Below are positions 3,960 through 49,790 of a stretch of 64,000 nucleotides of DNA, piece by piece. Under the pieces are notes generated by a model. The model did not search any database. It had not been told where the DNA came from and saw nothing but the letters and a program-made list of their open reading frames with translations. The stretch spans positions 1,302,001 through 1,366,000 of the forward strand of contig OZ287074.1 of the NCBI GenBank assembly GCA_965645245.1. Direction: 5' to 3'. Source of the stretch: Massalongia carnosa. Taxonomy: Eukaryota. Position numbers and translations under genes: made by a program. Numbering within the stretch: the stretch's first letter is position 1; the number at the start of each line of letters is the position of its first letter.

Positions 3960-4674
3960 GGCGTGTGTTCGAAGCGACTTCATGCAAGAGAATATTTAGG
4001 TGATTGAGGTCTGAAGTAGTAGGTGACAGTTGTAGGAATGGAAAAAAAGAAGACGGTAGACGAAGTATTGACACGCTATGTTCTATAGACGGACGCATGA
4101 AGCATGAAACGCAGTGAACGCAGGCGACAAAGAACGCTCAAAACGACCGGACGACGACAAGAGCCCTGGGAGAGTGATGACGTGAAAACGAAATTGCTGA
4201 TTGCTGGGTGTGTCCAGTTAAATGATGGCTCCGGAGGGACAGGGGCCCTTAAAGCGTTATTATATGAAGGGATCGGACGGACAACCAGAAATGAATGAAA
4301 ATGTCAGTCGATGAATAAATGTCTGTAAGGAAAAGGAACTGCGGAAATTGATTTGTCCCCAAAAGCTTCATTTCGTACAATTGCACAATTACCCGTGCAG
4401 ACTGCCACGCGACAGCTAAAGAGGTGAAACTGTGTTTTTGGTTGCCCAACATGACGACAGGAATGCTGGCAACCGAATGGATGGCTGGGCTGCCATTGCT
4501 CCAAGGTATAGATACAAATGTGCATAGAAATACCATTACCTAGTTACCAGGTGAAGTCAAAAACAACCGGACGGAACATGAGGATACCTCCAGCAGGAGT
4601 CCTGCCCTGGAGCCCCTTGCATTTCTGTAGCATTCTCCAACTCAAACCGCACATTCCAAGCCTCCTCCCCACCG

Positions 4675-6198
4675 TTAATGTGGATGCTCTTTGATATGAA
4701 AACTTTTCAGCTTCACGAACTGCTCGAAGCCAAATCTACTCAAAGTGACTCCCTTCCCTGAGTTTTTCCACCCCGTCCACGCAAGGTCCTACCCATATGT
4801 CAATCACTCAGAGCAAAAAGAAGAGGAAGAGGCCGGTAGGTAATTGTCTTACCGGGCTAGGGAAATCACATCGGTTGATAAAGACCGTGCCTGCGTCAAC
4901 CTGGTCAGCAAGTTGTTCGCCCATCCGTTCGTCCTTGGTCCAAATGCTGGCGGTGAGCCCAAACTCGCTATCGTTCATCAACCGGATGGCCTCTTCGTCG
5001 TTGCCAACCTTCATGACGGGTATGATGGGTCCAAACGTCTCGTCGTTCATCACGTCCATGTCGTGGGTCACGCCCGTCAGTAGCGTCGGCTTGACGTAAT
5101 TCCCTTCGAAAGGTAGGGACGAGAAGCTGGGGGTTTCCGGTGTTGCGTCTCTGGCGCCCTTCTCAAGTGCATCGTGGACGTGGGCGTTGATAAGGTGCAT
5201 CGACTTTTTCGACACCACGGGCCCAATCACGGTGTCTGGATCAAATGGGTCGCCAAGTCTGTAGCCTTTGAGCACGTCTTGTACGGCAGCGACGAACTCA
5301 TCGTGTATCTTTTCCGCAACGTAGACTCTCTCTATGCTACAGCAGCTTTGTCCGGAATTGAACACCGCTCCATCCACAATCTCCCTTGCTACCCATCTGA
5401 TATCTACATCTGCTCGCACATACGCCGGGTCCTTACCTCCAAGTTCGAGTCCGACCGGAACCACCCGATGAGCCGCCGCTTGTTGCACCTGGAGCCCTCC
5501 CGCCACCGAACCTGTAAAACAGATCAGTCGAATCTGCGGGGACCGCACGATGCTCTCCAAGCGTATCAATGATCCGCAGTGAAAAAACTGTATGACGTGG
5601 GCCGGGAGGCCCGCTTCGGCGAAGATGTGATGGATGTGTTCGACAATGGTAGGCGTTTGCGGCGAAGGCTTGAGGATGACAGAATTGCCCGCGAGGATGG
5701 CGGGTATGAGAGAATTAATCAGTATCAAATACGGATACTATCGAATCGTTACTCCCATCCCTTCACCGCAACCGAAATGCAAAGCGAGCCTACGTTCCAC
5801 GCAAAAATGATCAAGACCGGCCCCACTGGGGTTTTTCGGATGTACCGCTTGAAGCCCCTCTCCGGCTCGCCGTCTGTGTCCTGGAGCGCATCCTCGCTGA
5901 TTTTCAACAAATGCTCTGCTCGGGCAACGGCGGTGACGATCTCCTTGGCCGTGTACGCGATCGGTCGCCCCATCTGATGCGTGAGCTCCCACGCCAAGTC
6001 ATCTTGCTTCTGGTAGAGTAGACGGAGCGCCCGCCGCACGATTGCCTGGCGCTCCGCGAGCGAGGTGAGGCGAAAATCATTGAAGGCTTGCGTCGCGATG
6101 GCAGGGAGAAGGGCAACGTCGGCGTCGGAAAGACCGTTTCTCGTTATGATTGGCTGGTCGGTGATGGGCGAAACGGTAGTGAGGACTTCGACGGACAT
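4675..6198 (-). CDS. Aldehyde dehydrogenase, multi-exon
   Basis: Motifs AWN.P, ILKPS, FTGS, LELGGKDP, FNSGQSCC (catalytic Cys), ETFGP; last exon ends KSFHIKEHPH*. Confidence 0.93.
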
Positions 6199-42279: not shown

Positions 42280-43735
42280 GATCGTGCTGTCAAGACGTCC
42301 TTGGGTTGAAGTTAATAACGTTATGGATATGAAAGAGATAACGATATCTGAATTACTTGAGAAGCTAAATATCTAGCTAGAGCGTATATGAAAAAGCTGT
42401 CTATTCCCCTGCTACTTTGGGCAAGACTACCTCATGCGGTTAGATTTAACCCGAAAAAGGGAAGGCGGGTTGCGGAACAGTACTGAATTATCAAATAATG
42501 CGGAGAGGACGCCGTACGGAAAGGACCAAAAAGAGGCACCTCACTGCGAGCATGCATTTCATCGTATGATATCGTAAAACTTTGCAGGCCTATTAATCAT
42601 ATCAACCATAGTCGATATCTCGAAACTTGCGTGCTTTTTCGCCCGTTTGCGGTGGGGGGAGGAGGTCTCTTCGCGAAGCATCAGATTTTCTTTGAAATCG
42701 TTCATAAGAGGTTTAGCGCGGACTCGATTGGGTTTACGGTACCTATCATAGCCTTTTCACCGCAGCTTTTTTCTATTTCAAGGTAAAGAATCTTCTCCAT
42801 CGCAGCTCCCTTCATGATGATGATGATGTATTCATACTCCGATATGACACCGGCCGTAGGCCGACCCATGCGGGCAAAGCTATCTGTCAGATAGATGATG
42901 ATGGGCGAAGACCTTGCTTGCTACTACAGAAAAGGGAGATGACTATATACAGAGTGACAGGGCTGAGGGCCGAGCTCGCTTAGTAATGCCCACTTTTGAC
43001 ACTATCTAAGTTATGTTACATGGAAAACCTTTCACAGGTGTAAAAACCATATCCCTTGATACCCGTCCGATGTGACTACGGGTCGACGTCGGGCGGGAGA
43101 CGCAGTGCAAAAGACGTGTGGGAACTGTAATGCCTTGTGAAAAGAGAAGAAAGAAAGAAAGGTTCAACTATTGTTGATTGTACAATAATGTTGATGCTAG
43201 TGAGAATTGATTCATTAAGCCTGTTTTCATTAGCCAAGCAATTAGTATCTTCAGAGTTTTTGATGATTCGGTCAGCTGCTGATAGTCGCTCGTGCCGGCG
43301 GCGCGAAACATCTGTTCTCTATTGTCAATAAGTCTGCAGAACATGATTACATGTTCTGGAGTTTGTCTGTGCCAGCCACATGAGCAGCCGGTGAGGTGAC
43401 GGAGGGCACCCGTCGCTTATAGAGGAAGTCAGCTAACCCGATTTTGCCAGTGCGGAGAGCAGCTCCCTTCATCTCAGCCAGCTAATAATTCTTTCTATGA
43501 CCCTTATCGGTGCCGTTACCTTCGCTTGCGCTGGGGGGGCTTTTAATTGGATGAATTGATTTGAATGCTTGAATTTGATTGGGCATGGGAACGACACAGG
43601 TCAGCCCGGGCAGGCCTAGGCACGTGACTCGGGGTCGGTGCTGAGGTGAGAACCTCATCTTCTAGGCCCGAGGCGTCTGCTGACGCTCAACGATCCGATA
43701 GATGATGCCCGACGGCAGTGCCCGACGGCGATGAT

Positions 43736-44902
43736 CTAGATGGAGGTGCCCGGCGGCGCTCCGGATCGATGCCCTGGTTGACCTGTACGCCCAATGGAAT
43801 GCCCAATTGAGTAGGGGTAGGAGTTTGTAGGATTCGTCTCGGCGACGATAGCACGTGGGACTGCTAGAGGGATGCCTTTTTGAAAACTGAGGTTCAAATT
43901 GAATAGTGAGGCCTGGGACGTCTGAAAGTATAGCTGAAACGCGTTTGATGACCATCTTCCAAGTCTCTGAATACTCTCATCCAGCATCCCGTGGTCGGCG
44001 GCGTGTTGTGCTGCTCCTTTTCTGAAGCTGTGTCCCGAGTATGCCGAGTCGTTGATGCCGGCGGCTATCAGTCTCTTTTTCAGGGATGCTATGACGGAGG
44101 CTCTGGTGAATGCGGTGCCGAGACGAAAAAGCGGGGATGTAGATGGCTGAGGATCATTTCTGAAAAGACGCCGTAGTGCTGTCACGGGGCAAGTGCTCTC
44201 ATTGGTCGCTGCCAGCACTATCTGAACTCCTGAGTGATTTGTGTCTGTTTTGCTTCTTTTGAGACGTAATGTCGCGTATTGATCGTTCTCGGCGAATGAG
44301 ATGTCACCTCGTGTAGGTTTCAATCTCTGAAAAGATGTCTTCTTACGATCGGCGACAGTGTAGGTGATTTCCCCGAGTCTGAGGAACCCTGCCCATGCAA
44401 CTTTGAATGTCGCGTCGATGTTGAGGTCTTCGGCCGAATGAGCGGGAATACTGGTGATTTTTGTCAGTAATTCTTTTGAAATGGGTAGGCGTCTTCTTTT
44501 TGTCTGAGAAAAGATCCTTTTTCCCCCTTTCAGCATCAATTGAAGTCTCGGCCCCTCGAATGGGGTGAGGCCGTATCCTCGGTCTACATGGTATGATCTG
44601 AGGCCGGCGAGGTAGCTCGCTGCCGTCTCTGGTTTTATCTTTCCCTGCTTGGGTGTGCCGCCCCCGTATAGTCGACCGGCTAGCCATTCCTCGAGGGACT
44701 CGGTTGTTGCAGGCCACGACGTGCGTCCCGTCGTCGCGCAGAATGCCTCGTATGAGTCGATCGCCGTCCCGTACCCTTTTCTCGTGTCCGCCGAGTGTCC
44801 GTGCCAGACGAGGCGTTTTACCAGGGCTGACCCTGGTGTGGAGGATAGGTAGGTGGAGGGAGGTTCATCGAATTGTATGGGTTCCGCCAATGAGGGCAAA
44901 AG
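43736..44902 (-). CDS. Tyrosine recombinase of the retrotransposon
   Basis: Catalytic set intact: FLRLGE (R), KRSKTD (K), GHSFRKG (HxxR), LGRWSS (W), FQLYF (Y). No AUG before residue ~121. Confidence 0.93.
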   Translation of the reverse strand, partial: LLPSLAEPIQFDEPPSTYLSSTPGSALVKRLVWHGHSADTRKGYGTAIDSYEAFCATTGRTSWPATTESLEEWLAGRLYGGGTPKQGKIKPETAASYLAGLRSYHVDRGYGLTPFEGPRLQLMLKGGKRIFSQTKRRRLPISKELLTKITSIPAHSAEDLNIDATFKVAWAGFLRLGEITYTVADRKKTSFQRLKPTRGDISFAENDQYATLRLKRSKTDTNHSGVQIVLAATNESTCPVTALRRLFRNDPQPSTSPLFRLGTAFTRASVIASLKKRLIAAGINDSAYSGHSFRKGAAQHAADHGMLDESIQRLGRWSSNAFQLYFQTSQASLFNLNLSFQKGIPLAVPRAIVAETNPTNSYPYSIGHSIGRTGQPGHRSGAPPGTSI

Positions 44903-46521
44903 TTAGCCAATCTTTCATCATCAAAACGTGACAGGGCATCTGCTAGTCCATTGGAAGTGCCACTGATCCATTGACAACGTAGTACGATGTCCCACTTTGC
45001 AGCTATGGACAGTATTTCTCGTAGAGGCGCGTTGGCCGGTCCCTTGAGGGTTAGATTCGTGAATCCTGTGTATGCTGTGTTGCTGTCGGTAAAGACAAGG
45101 ATCTGTCGATGTCGCCATGTCGGCGCCCATTTCTGAAGGATTAGAAGGATAGCCTCGACTTCTCAGACGTTTATGCTCGGTGATTCTTCCTGATTGAGGA
45201 CTAGGACTCGGGCCCTACATGCGTTTTTTTGATTCACGAGCTCGTTGTCTTGTTGAAAATAGCCTCCGAGACCCGTGAGGCATGCATCCGTATGCACCTT
45301 GATCGTGTCTCGTGTTGACGTCTCGAAGAAGACAATACCGTTGAAGTCCACTAAAAGTTTGTTCCACCAGATGAGATCCTGTCTGACCCATGTGGGAATT
45401 CTTCTTTTGACCCGACGATGACTGCCCGAGGGAAATGAGGCTATAAAATTCCAGAATAATCGTAAGAAGACTCGGCCCAATTTGACTGCCTGTGCGCAGA
45501 AGCTTAGGAAGCCCGCTATTGACTGCATGTCGCCGAGGCTGATTGTCGTCTCGTTTAGTGCCTTTGTAGTGATGATTCTCGCTTTTTCCAGCTTGTCCGC
45601 TGGCAGACGAATAAGACTGTTGATAGTGTCGACCTCGAGTCCGAAGACTGTCGCTGTCGTTCCCTCGGCGTCTTTTGAGTCGTTTCTCGCGATGCCGAGA
45701 ATGTCGGTGAGAATGTTGTAGGCTTTTGTTTCTTGGTGCAATCGTTCTGACGATGTCTCGGATGGGAAAATTGCAACGAAGTCGTCTAGATAGTGATGTA
45801 ATCTCCATTGTAGAAAGGATTCCAAAATCCAATGAAAGCCTTCCGCAAAAAGATTGAAGATGAACGGGGCCGTCGACAGTACGAACGAAAGGCATGTCTC
45901 GGTGTAGAATTCGTCATTCCATCCGAAACCCAGAAGCCATTGATGATGAGGTGCGACGGGAACGTTTCGAAAGGCGTCTTTGACGTCTCTTTTCACTATG
46001 ACAGCACCTTTGCCCTCTGACAGAATCAATTGACTAATGTCGTCGAGTCTGGCGTATTGTAATTTGGATGCCTCTTCTGGAATGTTGTCGTTGACTGATG
46101 TTTGATTGGGATGAGACAGATGATGAATGCGTCGCCATCCTCCGTCATGTTTCGGGACCAAGCCGAGGGGGGAGGCCACAAATGGCTGACTCGGGGCGGC
46201 TATTCGTCTGACTCGGCCCTTCCTGAGGTCCTCTTGAAGCTTATTCTCGATCGTTTCCGGGTCCTCATTCACTGATGTCAGATTTTTTTCGATCCGAAGG
46301 ATGTCTGTGGGGCCTTCGTATCCGATTTGTACTCCGAAACGAAGGATCATGGGCAGATGGACTCGGAGGGGGCCCGGATACTCTTGAAGTAGAGTTGCCC
46401 ATGCGGACGGTACGAGGGGAGATGGGCTGTCTTTCAAACGCTGACGAGATGCGTCTACGAGTTGAAACGAAGGGATTGTATTTGGTCTGATTGGTGCAGG
46501 TAAGCAGGGATGGGACGTCAT
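44818..46521 (-). pseudogene. Reverse transcriptase-RNase H (pol) with one in-frame TGA at 45163-45165
   Basis: VPKHDGGWRRIHHLS, KRDVKDAFR, HYLDD, HTDAC; the frame continues past the stop as SINV*EVEAI...FTDS...NGLADALSR to TAA at 44818. Confidence 0.9.
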
Positions 46522-46566
46522 GAATTCAGCTATTGAAGCTATTCTACTGCCTCCTGCACCAACCCC

Positions 46567-47580
46567 CTATTTCTTCGTTGGGCATGTCTTCTGGCCATGC
46601 CCAGCCGCGCCGCACGATTTGCATTTGTGCTGTCGGTAGCACGACGGCCAGGTGCAGGTGCCGCTGTTGTACTTGTCGCAGATTTCCCCCGCTGCCTTCT
46701 CGGCCCTCTCGGCCCTGTCTCCTCTCGGGATCGGTCGTCGGGACGGCGGGGATCGTGAGCGGCGACGGCGTAGGACTGTGAGGGGGGTGCAGAATCGAGC
46801 TTGGAATTCGTCGGGCATTTTCCATTGGGATGCGTCGGATGGCTGAGACGCGATGATGTGGGCGTGGGTTTCGATGGCGAGGGGGAGGACTGCTTCCTGC
46901 CACTCGTACACCTTGGCCAGCGTGAGGATTTTTCCGTGGAATGCCGACATGGTGGCGTGAAGCTGTTGACTCGATTTCCCGAAAAGACTGACCATGATCG
47001 AGGTGTAGTTGATGAAGCTCTCGGTCCAGACGTCATGAACTGTCTTTCCGAAATCTTTGTAGGTCCCGGACGCCTTTCTCAACCTCAAGGCGCCGTCTTC
47101 AATGCCGATGCGGTCTTGATCCTTGTATGACTCGTATTGCATGCCGTGCATGTGTCGGAGGCGGGAGAGGTTGATAGCTTTGAATTTATTTGAAAAGATC
47201 TTGATGATCTCGTCCTGTGGTAGGCCCGCGAAACGGGGTGCTATGCTTCTTACTTCGAGAGGGATCTCACCTAGGTCCTCGTCGTCATCGCCGACGACAC
47301 GACTCGGCTTGCCAGCAGGAATGACGACCGCTATTCGGGCGTCAGATTCTCGGCGCATGCAGTCGATTTCTAGCTGCATTTTTTCCACCTCCTTCTCGGC
47401 GACCAATGCCTTGGACTCGGCAATTCTAGCCTCAGCCTCGGCCGCCTTCGCTTCCGCCTCGGCTTTCTTCTTTTGTAGGGCGAAGATTTGATTGGATTGG
47501 GCCTGCGTCAATCCGACAATCTCCTGGGGGTCGGGGACTATGTCGTCCATCAAGGTGCTTTGGGAACGGGTGTTCGTCAT
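46567..47580 (-). CDS. Gag-like ORF1 with coiled coil and C-terminal CCCH + CCHC zinc fingers
   Basis: CDKYNSGTCTWPSCYRQH followed by CKSCGAAGHGQKTC; first ATG at 47580. Confidence 0.85.
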   Translation of the reverse strand: MTNTRSQSTLMDDIVPDPQEIVGLTQAQSNQIFALQKKKAEAEAKAAEAEARIAESKALVAEKEVEKMQLEIDCMRRESDARIAVVIPAGKPSRVVGDDDEDLGEIPLEVRSIAPRFAGLPQDEIIKIFSNKFKAINLSRLRHMHGMQYESYKDQDRIGIEDGALRLRKASGTYKDFGKTVHDVWTESFINYTSIMVSLFGKSSQQLHATMSAFHGKILTLAKVYEWQEAVLPLAIETHAHIIASQPSDASQWKMPDEFQARFCTPLTVLRRRRSRSPPSRRPIPRGDRAERAEKAAGEICDKYNSGTCTWPSCYRQHKCKSCGAAGHGQKTCPTKK

Positions 47581-47583
47581 TGG

Positions 47584-47706
47584 GAGGTAGGGGCACCGAG
47601 ACAACGTGAGGTCGACGACGAGTCAGTGAGATTGGAAAAGCAGCAAGCACTGACAGCGAGGTAGGGGCACCGAGACAACGTGGGGTCGACGACGAGTCAG
47701 TGAGAT
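47584..47706. repeat. 49-bp direct repeat in the retrotransposon 5' leader
   Basis: 47584-47632 and 47658-47706 differ at one base. Confidence 0.92.
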
Positions 47707-47869
47707 GGATGAGGCCGAGTGAGAAGAAGTGGATGAGGAAAGAATTTTCAGAGGGTGATTCTTAATTTACTTTGACTCAGGGGCCTCACGTGACATAGAA
47801 CCTTCTCATCTATTTTAGCTCTTCATGTCTCAACACGTTTTTGCTCTTACTCAGGCCTCCGCACGTTCC

Positions 47870-48400
47870 GTAAATCAAATCGAACGATGCCGCAAACATA
47901 TAAACAATAAGAAAAACTCGCCGTACGGCGTTTTTCGGGTAAGAATTCTTATTTGAATTTTGACGTTTTGATTAATTATTTCATTAGGTGCAAAAACAAA
48001 CTCCTGTTATTTATTCGCGATCCTGTTTTGTTTCTTCAGACGCTCTCATTTTTTCTTCTATCGTTATCGAGTGCAAAAATAAAATATTTATCGCTCGCAC
48101 GGGAAACGCTTGCTGAATATCAACGTGAACTCGATACAGGAATGTTAACGGAAGATATTTTGACGAAAAAAATTGACGATGATATAGATAAGACTCGAGA
48201 CGGACGAGCTTATAATCACGTCAAACGACATATAATAGAAAAATCGTGTTGAAAGGGAGAAAATGGAGTTGATTATTTTTACGCTTCTAGAGTGCCTTAT
48301 TATCGACAGCTTCGAGAAAATGAACGAATTCAAGATGCACGAGATCAAAAAGCTAAAGAAGCTATCTGAAAAGCGACGGAAAAAGAAAATTGATAACAGA
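47870..48400. mobile_element. Degenerate AT-rich repeat relic (RIP-like)
   Basis: Sharp drop in GC relative to the neighbouring element, many surviving C in CpG, broken reading frames; family not identifiable. Confidence 0.5.
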
Positions 48401-48409
48401 GGAGATAGA

Positions 48410-48820
48410 TATTGAGGTTATTCAAGAGGCTATCTGATAGCTATTTGGGAAACTATTTGGGAGACTATTTGAAAGGCTATTTGAAAAGCAGCGAAGATTA
48501 TCTGAGAGACTATTTGAAAGGCTAATTGAAAAGTTATTTGGGAGGCTATTTGAAGAATTATTTGAAAAGCAGCGCAGAATATCTGAAAGGCTATTTGAAA
48601 GGCTATTTGAGAGACTATTTGAAAGCGGTGAAGACTATCTGAGAGGCTATTTGAAAGGCTTTATGCGAGGCTATTTGAAAGGCTATTTGGGAGGCTATTT
48701 GAGATGCTATCTGAAAAGCAGCGGAGACTATTTGGGAGGCTATTTGGGGAATATTTGGGAGGCTATTTGGAAGATATTTGAGGAGATAATTGAAAGGCTA
48801 TTTGGGAGACTATTTGTTGA
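48410..48820. repeat. Degenerate 12-bp minisatellite (GAAAGGCTATTT / GGGAGGCTATTT)
   Basis: Many GGCTATTTG/GACTATTTG units at about 12-bp period, with interspersed AAAGCAGCG variants. Confidence 0.9.
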
Positions 48821-49790
48821 AATAGGTGTATGACTATGGCTATATGGCTATGTAATAATAAAGGTATGTATGACCGTGATGTTAAGGATGAAGAGTTGCT
48901 AGGCAGCAATCTTTTCCTATTACTGGTCACCCCCTTCTAAGCGAGGTGATCTTATCTTATCTTGGGACTAAGCCTAATGCGGCATCTACGGTTTCCGTAG
49001 ATGATCTGTCCATCTAGGGCAGCCGTAGGTGCTATGTTCATCTTACTGATAGGTGTTCATTGTGCTGGTAGGAATTGGATATTCAACACTATTTGAAAGA
49101 TGCTTTGGCGAGTGCCAAGGAGGAGATGGCGCAGGGCCGTTGCGGAGCGAAGCGGAGCAGGTCCGGAGCAGAAATCAGAGATATTTTGAGATTCGCATGA
49201 AAAAATAGCAAGCCAAATAGTAGGTAAATGAAAAGTAGTAGTAAATTAGATTTTTTCATTCGAAACATCTCAGGTCTGAGATGGCACTGTCTCGTATATA
49301 TACCCTTGAGAAGCGAAACGGCTTGCATGACCCTAGAGGCCGATAATGCATCCTAGATGCATTCTCATAATATTAGGGTGTTTTAAAGAGGCCATGTTGT
49401 TAAGGGAATCTAGCTCCTAGGTACATACCTATACCTCCGTTAAGGAGGAAAGATTGTCAAATACGTATGGGTTTGTCTTTTTGGAGTGCTATATAAACTA
49501 GTGACTAGTAAGATAATCCAGCTCTTCATTGAGAATGGTACTGCAACTATCACATCGGTTCATACTACCGTAAGTACTCTGTACAGAGCACCACCAGATT
49601 ATGCTATGAAAAAGATTGCTGCGCTATTGTACTTTACAAACGAGTAAAACTCATTGTCATCAACTTCGTTAAACACTACCCCGCTGAATTTTCATAATAC
49701 CGCATGATAAAATCACTATCGTTGTGGCTCAACATACTTTTTAGATTTCTATCCGTATTAATCGAAATGGTCTTTATCCTGCCAACTATC

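Follow-up and report, generated by a model that had tools for sequence, protein, structure and literature searches.

A candidate stop-codon readthrough junction between gag and pol in a Ngaro-like retrotransposon of Massalongia carnosa and its relatives

Production of Gag-Pol as a fusion by readthrough at the stop codon of gag is textbook knowledge for gammaretroviruses, and readthrough is known in other retroelements and viruses. Published leaky sites include the tobamovirus type I motif, UAG-CAA-UUA, the type II context, UGA-CU, and a type III class with UAG, a 3' G and some RNA structure (PMC3542737). The UGA CU(A) core motif has been found experimentally to drive readthrough in the basidiomycete Ustilago maydis (PMC4207609). 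Control of the Gag:Pol ratio in the tyrosine-recombinase (YR) retrotransposons has hardly been studied. This study focused on the gag-pol junction of an element on the minus strand of a 64-kb stretch of DNA from Massalongia carnosa (contig OZ287074.1), the whole of which is called the window below. By its gene set, consisting of gag, reverse transcriptase (RT) with ribonuclease H (RNase H), and YR, with no methyltransferase, the element fits a Ngaro-type YR retrotransposon. A preliminary description of the window had proposed that a single UAG between gag and pol is read through, and comparison with related elements indicates that Pol is probably made in this way, as a Gag-Pol fusion by programmed readthrough of the gag stop; the chances that a predicted stem-loop downstream of the stop stimulates the process appear about even.

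The gag-pol junction and its conservation among relatives

The junction on the minus strand reads ...AAG AAA TAG GGG GTT GGT GCA GGA GGC AGT AGA ATA GCT TCA ATA GCT GAA TTC ATG ACG... Gag (47622..46570; 351 aa) and RT (46566..45166; 467 aa), taken as stop-to-stop open reading frames (ORFs), share one frame across the UAG, as the preliminary description had stated, and its count of exactly 15 sense codons between the gag stop and the next in-frame ATG was confirmed by reading the minus strand. This ATG, which it called the pol AUG, is not conserved: relatives carry I or L at that position, and in 18 of the 35 in-frame, single-stop junctions considered below the stretch from the stop to the conserved N-terminal motif of Pol contains no AUG. 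A point absent from that description is a second in-frame stop, located between RT and RNase H.

Relatives were surveyed with a Pol alignment of 33 sequences, chosen from the 120 protein matches listed. It brought up 80 loci from metagenomes, at 34-54% Pol identity, in which hidden Markov models (HMMs) built for this analysis served to locate the N-terminus of Pol and the C-terminus of gag. Together with the window, this gave 81 junctions; 22 of them were incomplete, and the other 59 (58 relatives and the window) had both termini and were classified. Gag and pol were in frame across exactly one stop in 35 of the 59, and in frame with two to six stops in a further 10. The remainder comprised three junctions with a -1 frame and overlap (L012, L016, L041), two with a +1 frame and overlap (L060, L066), and nine with a +1 frame and a gap (L037, L050, L051, L058, L059, L062, L071, L074, L078). 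No junction was fused, with a sense codon in place of the stop (0/59). Where both ORFs were largely intact, 18 of 25 junctions were in frame with one stop, and in relatives the stop was located 3-10 residues past a homologous CCCH+CCHC C-terminus of gag. The in-frame single stop dominated two deeply separated clades in a Pol tree, which covered 50 of the 59 junctions, while most of the exceptions fell in a third clade, made up of long fungal contigs with many copies carrying several stops. The conserved frame expected from the preliminary description was recovered across a single stop in 35 of 59 junctions and across several stops in 10, but not in the 14 that were out of frame, which belonged mostly to one decayed-looking clade.

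The out-of-frame relatives may have decayed, or may rely on a different mode of expression. The three loci with a -1 overlap contained no slippery heptamer, and although GT..AG pairs could be drawn in four of the nine +1-gap loci (L058, L059, L078, L051), none was convincing as an intron.

Contigs binned in metagenome-assembled genomes (MAGs) supplied two further classifiable loci, both in frame with one stop and close kin of L023 and L007, while a scan of viral_contigs returned 31 pattern matches with no relative among them. Three loci from genome_contigs (L081-L083) that carry this eukaryotic retrotransposon family were binned in bacterial MAGs (Kribbellaceae, Solirubrobacteraceae), presumably as binning contamination. 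In L014, L023 and L026, the first and last 115-837 nt of the contig were 100% identical, a pattern that tandem forms, circular forms or terminal repeats could leave in an assembly.

Among the 35 in-frame single stops, TAG and TGA were each used in 17 junctions and TAA in one; the base following the stop (+4) was C in 21, G in 11, T in two and A in one, and the last sense codon was AAA in 12. UAG-CAA occurred in seven of the 35, with L002 displaying UAG-CAA-UUA. Of the 17 UGA junctions, eight had UGA-CU, which continued as CUA in five (CUAG in three of these) and as CUC in three. As motifs, the UAG-CAA and UGA-CU(A) contexts of the relatives match the published type I and type II leaky sites, while the AAA-UAG-GGG of the window places it in a group with G after the stop (stop-G), which corresponds to the type III class. 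As to the UAG-G raised in the preliminary description, 11 of 35 junctions have G at +4, and sister lineages present UAG-CAA and UGA-CU contexts.

A conserved Pol N-terminal motif, l..F(L/I)xxxxCxPAPxRPNT, starts upstream of the AUG of the window, within the 15-codon linker, and its conservation extends to the codon just before the AUG. The ratio of nonsynonymous to synonymous differences (pN/pS) in the linker was 0.27-0.60 in seven of 11 locus pairs (from the L007/L008/L010, L005/L006 and L034/L036/L046 groups), and in the same seven pairs the linker indels were in multiples of three and similarity began at the first post-stop codon. In these comparisons the linker codons look to be under selection, and translated.

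Other copies of the element itself were also available. Contigs of unknown kind from four public runs were compared with the window over 44700-47700; all four runs cover 46394-46620, with no difference from the window listed, so that the family keeps the gag UAG and both arms of the stem. At position 45165, in the second stop, the contigs of all four runs have G rather than A (+ strand), and the best protein match (P0001, representing 59 member sequences), which is 98% identical and has an intact RT/RNase H of 567 aa, has R (Arg) at the nonsense position. The nonsense codon is private to the window copy. Closer relatives than the metagenome loci, P0002-P0006, have 56-59% identity.

The predicted stem-loop downstream of the stop

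The preliminary description had drawn a stem of about 18 bp that starts 2 nt after the stop and encloses the AUG in its loop, and a ViennaRNA fold of 46575-46480 returned the same structure. The predicted stem has 18 bp, two of which are G-U pairs, and one bulged A at 46501, and the G of the stop and the G that follows contribute two further pairs. Folding of the 96 nt gave -34.5 kcal/mol compared to a shuffle mean of -21.8 (z -3.92), and none of 200 dinucleotide shuffles was as stable. When 301 nt of context were folded (z -2.42, equalled by 2 of 100 shuffles), the stem was present in both the minimum free energy and the centroid structures, and the 93 nt following the stop ranked 11th-12th among 820 sliding windows along the element. 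A search of Rfam over 43400-47900 gave no match at E<=1. A compact pseudoknot of the murine leukemia virus (MuLV) type, about 8 nt after the UAG, was considered and set aside, the predicted structure being the 18-bp stem-loop 2 nt after the stop, although no explicit search for pseudoknots was made. Another region of low folding energy, at 43570-43740, was dismissed as a special structure since its composition accounts for it (z -1.1; 24 of 200 shuffles as good).

When the 90 nt following the stop were folded for the 35 junctions, the median z was -0.33, and the lowest values were those of the window (-4.6), L001 (-3.3), L015 (-3.1), L026 (-2.9) and L004 (-2.6). Pairing between the two arms was assessed with the first 30 nt after the stop against the 42 nt ending at the RPN codons of Pol. 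It was strong (-25 to -32 kcal/mol) in the window, L023, L005, L015, L006, L035 and L004, and when each 5' arm was set against all 3' arms, the cognate partner ranked 1-4 of 35 in the window, L015, L023, L005, L006, L004 and L003, and 6th in L035. Overall, cognate arms paired better than non-cognate arms, with none of 10,000 permutations as good. Composition explains a part of this signal, given 5' arms rich in G and 3' arms placed in Pro/Arg codons of the conserved motif.

The location of the best partner was also recorded. For the first 24 nt after the stop, scanned over 130 windows, the segment just 5' of RPN ranked first in the window, L015, L023, L035, L005 and L003, fourth in L020, sixth in L006 and twelfth in L004; the linkers of these nine loci span 75-171 nt and have different arm sequences. 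Of the other 25 loci scanned, L026 and L042 ranked 6th and the remaining 23 from 9th to 113th. When the segment from stop to RPN was folded alone, the whole linker was closed in seven loci, and with flanks of 30 and 60 nt the closing pairs were kept in the window, L004, L023, L015 and L003. A MAFFT alignment of the nine stop-to-RPN segments did not bring the stops into one column, and so was unfit for pair counting or a covariance model, while L023 and L082, taken as a covariation pair, differ at only 3 positions in 186 nt and are uninformative. As far as these comparisons reach, conservation of the stem, as an architecture, is limited to part of the stop-G subclade of the window, and covariation does not prove it. 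The structural conservation anticipated by the preliminary description thus applies to that part of the subclade, but not to the UAG-CAA and UGA-CU lineages, from which the stem is absent, as the published readthrough classes would predict.

Proposed readthrough and its alternatives

From the frame, the stop, its contexts and the predicted stem, together with the conservation of each, we infer ribosomal readthrough and its stimulation by the stem, and grade the two differently. That Gag-Pol arises by readthrough, as first put forward in the preliminary description, is supported by the frame, single stop, contexts and linker conservation of the relatives, and is likely. In the proposed mechanism, gag would terminate at the UAG, and Pol, lying in the same frame and without a conserved start codon of its own, would be made as a Gag-Pol fusion by the minority of ribosomes that decode the stop with a near-cognate tRNA; this would set a high Gag:Pol ratio, as in gammaretroviruses. 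The signal in the window would consist of the A-rich 5' context (AAG AAA), UAG-GGG and the long stem-loop, and so would resemble type III. With the UAG in the A site, the first ~9 nt of the stem would be inside the ribosome, and we infer that at the mRNA entry channel the upper ~11 bp (GCAGG-AGGCAG / CUGCUU-A-CCUGC) would remain paired. Sister lineages would arrive at the same outcome at the homologous junction by way of UAG-CAA (type I-like) or UGA-CU(A) (type II-like), with no stem.

A wider scenario, which we hold tentatively and somewhat on the doubtful side, would have a broad fungal Ngaro clade depend wholly on readthrough for Pol, with all three viral signal classes at one homologous junction. 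Its stop-G lineages would possess a new design of stimulator, in which a stem starting from the stop closes the linker onto the PAP/RPN codons and so ties an RNA signal to protein sequence, and, with the -1 overlap of the YR ORF, each element would undergo two recoding events.

Several observations weigh against readthrough, or against a part for the stem in it. The in-frame single stop is not universal, gag and pol being in different frames in 14 of the 59 junctions, and the loci are related, so that the counts are not independent events. Linker pN/pS was 0.77-1.54 in the other four of the 11 pairs (L053/L064, L052/L063, L043/L049, L043/L079), and pN is biased downward by the use of protein to guide the codon alignments. 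Owing to the private nonsense codon that pol carries, the window copy is dead or inactive. Only 2 nt separate the stem from the stop, compared to the ~8 nt typical of known stimulators, and the lower half of the stem must melt when the stop occupies the A site. Any partner rich in Pro codons pairs well with the G-rich 5' arms (means of -16 to -23 kcal/mol for non-cognate pairs), and the closing pairs are lost with flanks in L005, L006, L035 and L020. In the retrotransposon Tca2 of Candida albicans, a gag-UGA-pol junction for which a pseudoknot is predicted failed to direct readthrough when placed in S. cerevisiae reporters, and an internal promoter was present in it (PMC2194720). Because of this precedent the layout of a junction does not prove its mechanism, and the confidence given here to readthrough, and the even balance given to the stem, were set with it in mind.

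A chance nonsense mutation could in principle account for the gag stop, if this copy had decayed and gag and pol were normally fused in one ORF, and the window copy does bear a private nonsense codon, at 45165. Such an origin is exceedingly improbable given that no fused junction was seen among the 59, that the UAG is present in contigs of all four public runs, and that the homologous position is occupied by a stop in related loci; on this comparative evidence the UAG can be taken to be a genuine, family-conserved terminator and not a lesion. It is also quite unlikely that Pol is translated independently, from the AUG at 46521 or a non-AUG start, through termination-reinitiation, leaky scanning, or an internal promoter or subgenomic RNA, and that the shared frame is incidental. 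Independent initiation would not hold 35 of 59 junctions to one frame with just one stop, and protein-level conservation and in-frame indels start directly after the stop. It is true that an in-frame AUG stands 15 codons past the stop and that gene callers start the intact homologue P0001 there, but this codon is the unconserved one described above, with no AUG ahead of the Pol motif in 18 of 35 junctions, and it sits within a stable predicted stem-loop. The cryptic promoter held by the Tca2 junction, where readthrough was undetected (PMC2194720), remains a point in favor of such initiation.

Tca2 was also concluded to need a 'non-canonical' bypass of its stop (PMC2194720), and a bypass in the present element otherwise than by near-cognate decoding, whether through a small intron, RNA editing or some other non-canonical route, would have a parallel there, as well as in the frame-fusing GT..AG pairs that can be drawn in the out-of-frame loci L058, L059, L078 and L051. 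Splicing, however, needs neither a conserved frame across the stop nor the leaky contexts UAG-CAA and UGA-CU, the linker directly after the stop is conserved as protein, and contigs of the four public runs (DNA, not RNA) show no joint across the junction, all of which make a bypass of this kind very unlikely. A different question is whether readthrough depends on local context only, the stem serving for packaging or dimerisation, as a cis element in reverse transcription, or to mask the AUG, or arising in part because G-rich linker codons face Pro codons. A spacer of zero to 2 nt is not typical of stimulators, the UAG-CAA and UGA-CU lineages lack the stem, non-cognate arm pairs are fairly stable too, the closing pairs vanish with flanks in four of nine loci, and the one close pair available, with 3 nucleotide differences, affords no real test of covariation. 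Set against this, the stem co-occurs with stop-G contexts, which alone are not known as leaky; its position, from just after the stop to the PAP/RPN codons, is kept over linkers of 75-171 nt with differing arms; and the cognate pair ranks 1-4 of 35 in the window and six relatives (L015, L023, L005, L006, L004, L003). Reliance on context only is accordingly possible but rather unlikely.

The element and comparison with known systems

The features of the element are collected in Table 1. Gag had no match in Pfam, but its C-terminus carries a CCCH-like finger and then a CCHC knuckle (CKSCGAAGHGQKTC), 5 residues ahead of the stop. The pol frame matched Pfam RVT_1 (39.3 bits compared to a cutoff of 29.6, E 7e-10), and its RNase H part aligns with relatives carrying PF17917. 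The putative YR ORF scored 18.7 bits against Phage_integrase, under the cutoff of 27.1 (E 0.0016); its translation displays HSFR...GRW...Y, which may be the catalytic motif of tyrosine recombinases. No Pfam match to a methyltransferase, protease or DDE integrase was seen in the four ORFs of the window element, and since the RNase H and YR ORFs overlap there is no room for a further domain between them.

Table 1. Features of the Ngaro-like element in the window (positions are those of the window).
Feature	Position	Strand	Remarks
Gag terminator UAG	46567..46569	-	context AAG AAA UAG GGG; candidate readthrough site
In-frame linker of 15 codons (GVGAGGSRIASIAEF)	46522..46566	-	aligns at its end with the conserved N-terminal motif of Pol
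First in-frame AUG after the gag stop	46519..46521	-	within the loop of the stem; not conserved in relatives
Stem, 5' arm (GGUUGGUGCAGGAGGCAG)	46547..46564	-	begins 2 nt after the stop
Stem, 3' arm (CUGCUUACCUGCACCAAUC)	46489..46507	-	in the C-L-P-A-P-I codons of the conserved Pol N-terminus
Gag-like ORF	46567..47580	-	from first ATG, 47580, to UAG; matches a gag HMM built from 23 upstream ORFs
RT/RNase H (pol) frame	44818..46566	-	ends at stop 44820-44818; broken by nonsense codon 45165-45163
YR ORF, 388 codons	43736..44902	-	-1 frame of pol; first Met about 120 codons in
Two 49-nt direct repeats, 98% identical	47584-47632 and 47658-47706	-	just upstream of the gag AUG; 74-nt spacing

Within the 64-kb window, no second copy of the element was found, nor were split direct repeats around this copy, only the 49-nt tandem pair 5' of gag. 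In other copies, this repeat region differs by indels: an insertion of 17 nt, others of one base, and a skip of 59 nt. A relative, L036, did show the A1...B1-A2-B2 layout of Ngaro elements, with A1 (35-198) equal to A2 (4423-4585) and B1 (4322-4373) equal to B2 (4734-4785); most contigs of the relatives stop short of the element termini. The 5' side of the window element adjoins a degenerate tandem array (48418-48830) with a 12-nt period and about 20 copies, in units like CTATTTGAAAGG. The YR ORF overlaps pol by 85 nt at 44818-44902, in the -1 frame, and YR was likewise in the -1 frame of pol in eight of 12 relatives checked (L002, L004, L007, L014, L018, L026, L036, L053). A canonical X_XXY_YYZ slippery heptamer was absent from the pol/YR overlap of the window; the overlap may be a second recoding site.

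If readthrough is confirmed, a conserved, in-frame leaky stop would put YR retrotransposons beside gammaretroviruses and many RNA viruses, and would provide, at one homologous fungal site, type I-, II- and III-like signals as a natural series, handy for study of the trade-off between context and structure in eukaryotic termination. Annotation of fungal YR elements would also gain from treating the junction as a readthrough site, as gene callers split or truncate these ORFs: P0001 was started at the non-conserved AUG, and P0025 was modelled as a fusion. The novelty of readthrough in YR retrotransposons is unproven. Full-text literature searches returned, in the text they reached, no statement on gag-pol readthrough in Ngaro or DIRS elements, but the founding papers (among them Goodwin & Poulter 2004) and a review (Poulter & Butler 2015) were outside their coverage and may describe the in-frame stop. 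The fungal survey of Muszewska et al. 2013 (PMC3783388) has no occurrence of 'stop codon' or 'readthrough', and does not address the coupling of gag and pol. Possibly new are a stem with a zero-to-2-nt spacer that is anchored in conserved Pol codons, and the presence of type I-, II- and III-like signals at one junction.

The fungal Ngaro/DIRS elements of that survey (PMC3783388) resemble the window element in having gag, RT/RNase H and YR with no methyltransferase, and their YR ORF is often frameshifted, while DIRS1-type elements are described with overlapping ORFs, unlike gag and pol of the window. Tca2, a Ty1/copia element (PMC2194720), is likewise fungal, with gag-UGA-pol in one frame, a predicted pseudoknot on the 3' side and Pol made from gag-pol RNA, but it is a long terminal repeat element and not a YR element. 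The UGA CU(A) motif (Stiebler et al. 2014, PMC4207609) is common to the eight of 17 UGA junctions in sister lineages, but not to the window, which has UAG-GGG, and the readthrough described for it makes peroxisomal isoforms rather than Gag-Pol.

Among viruses, the readthrough sites of alphaviruses and plant viruses (Firth et al. 2011, PMC3159437) have extended 3' stem-loops which, like the stem predicted in the window, are long and follow closely on the stop, and UAG-GGG figures among the natural contexts tabulated, with rice stripe necrosis benyvirus and Tombusviridae having UAG-GGG/UAG-GGR sites (PMC3542737, Table 5). Those viral stems begin about 8 nt from the stop, in RNA viruses, whereas the window stem is a prediction. 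The likeness to murine leukemia virus, of type III (PMC3542737), lies in a gag and pol in one frame, a UAG then G, and a 3' RNA structure. MuLV has a compact pseudoknot after an 8-nt spacer, compared to the predicted long stem-loop of the window, 2 nt after the stop and with its 3' arm in conserved Pol codons, and the window element differs further in its fungal host, its tyrosine recombinase and its lack of a protease or DDE integrase. The logic that the two would share is the production of a small share of Gag-Pol fusion.

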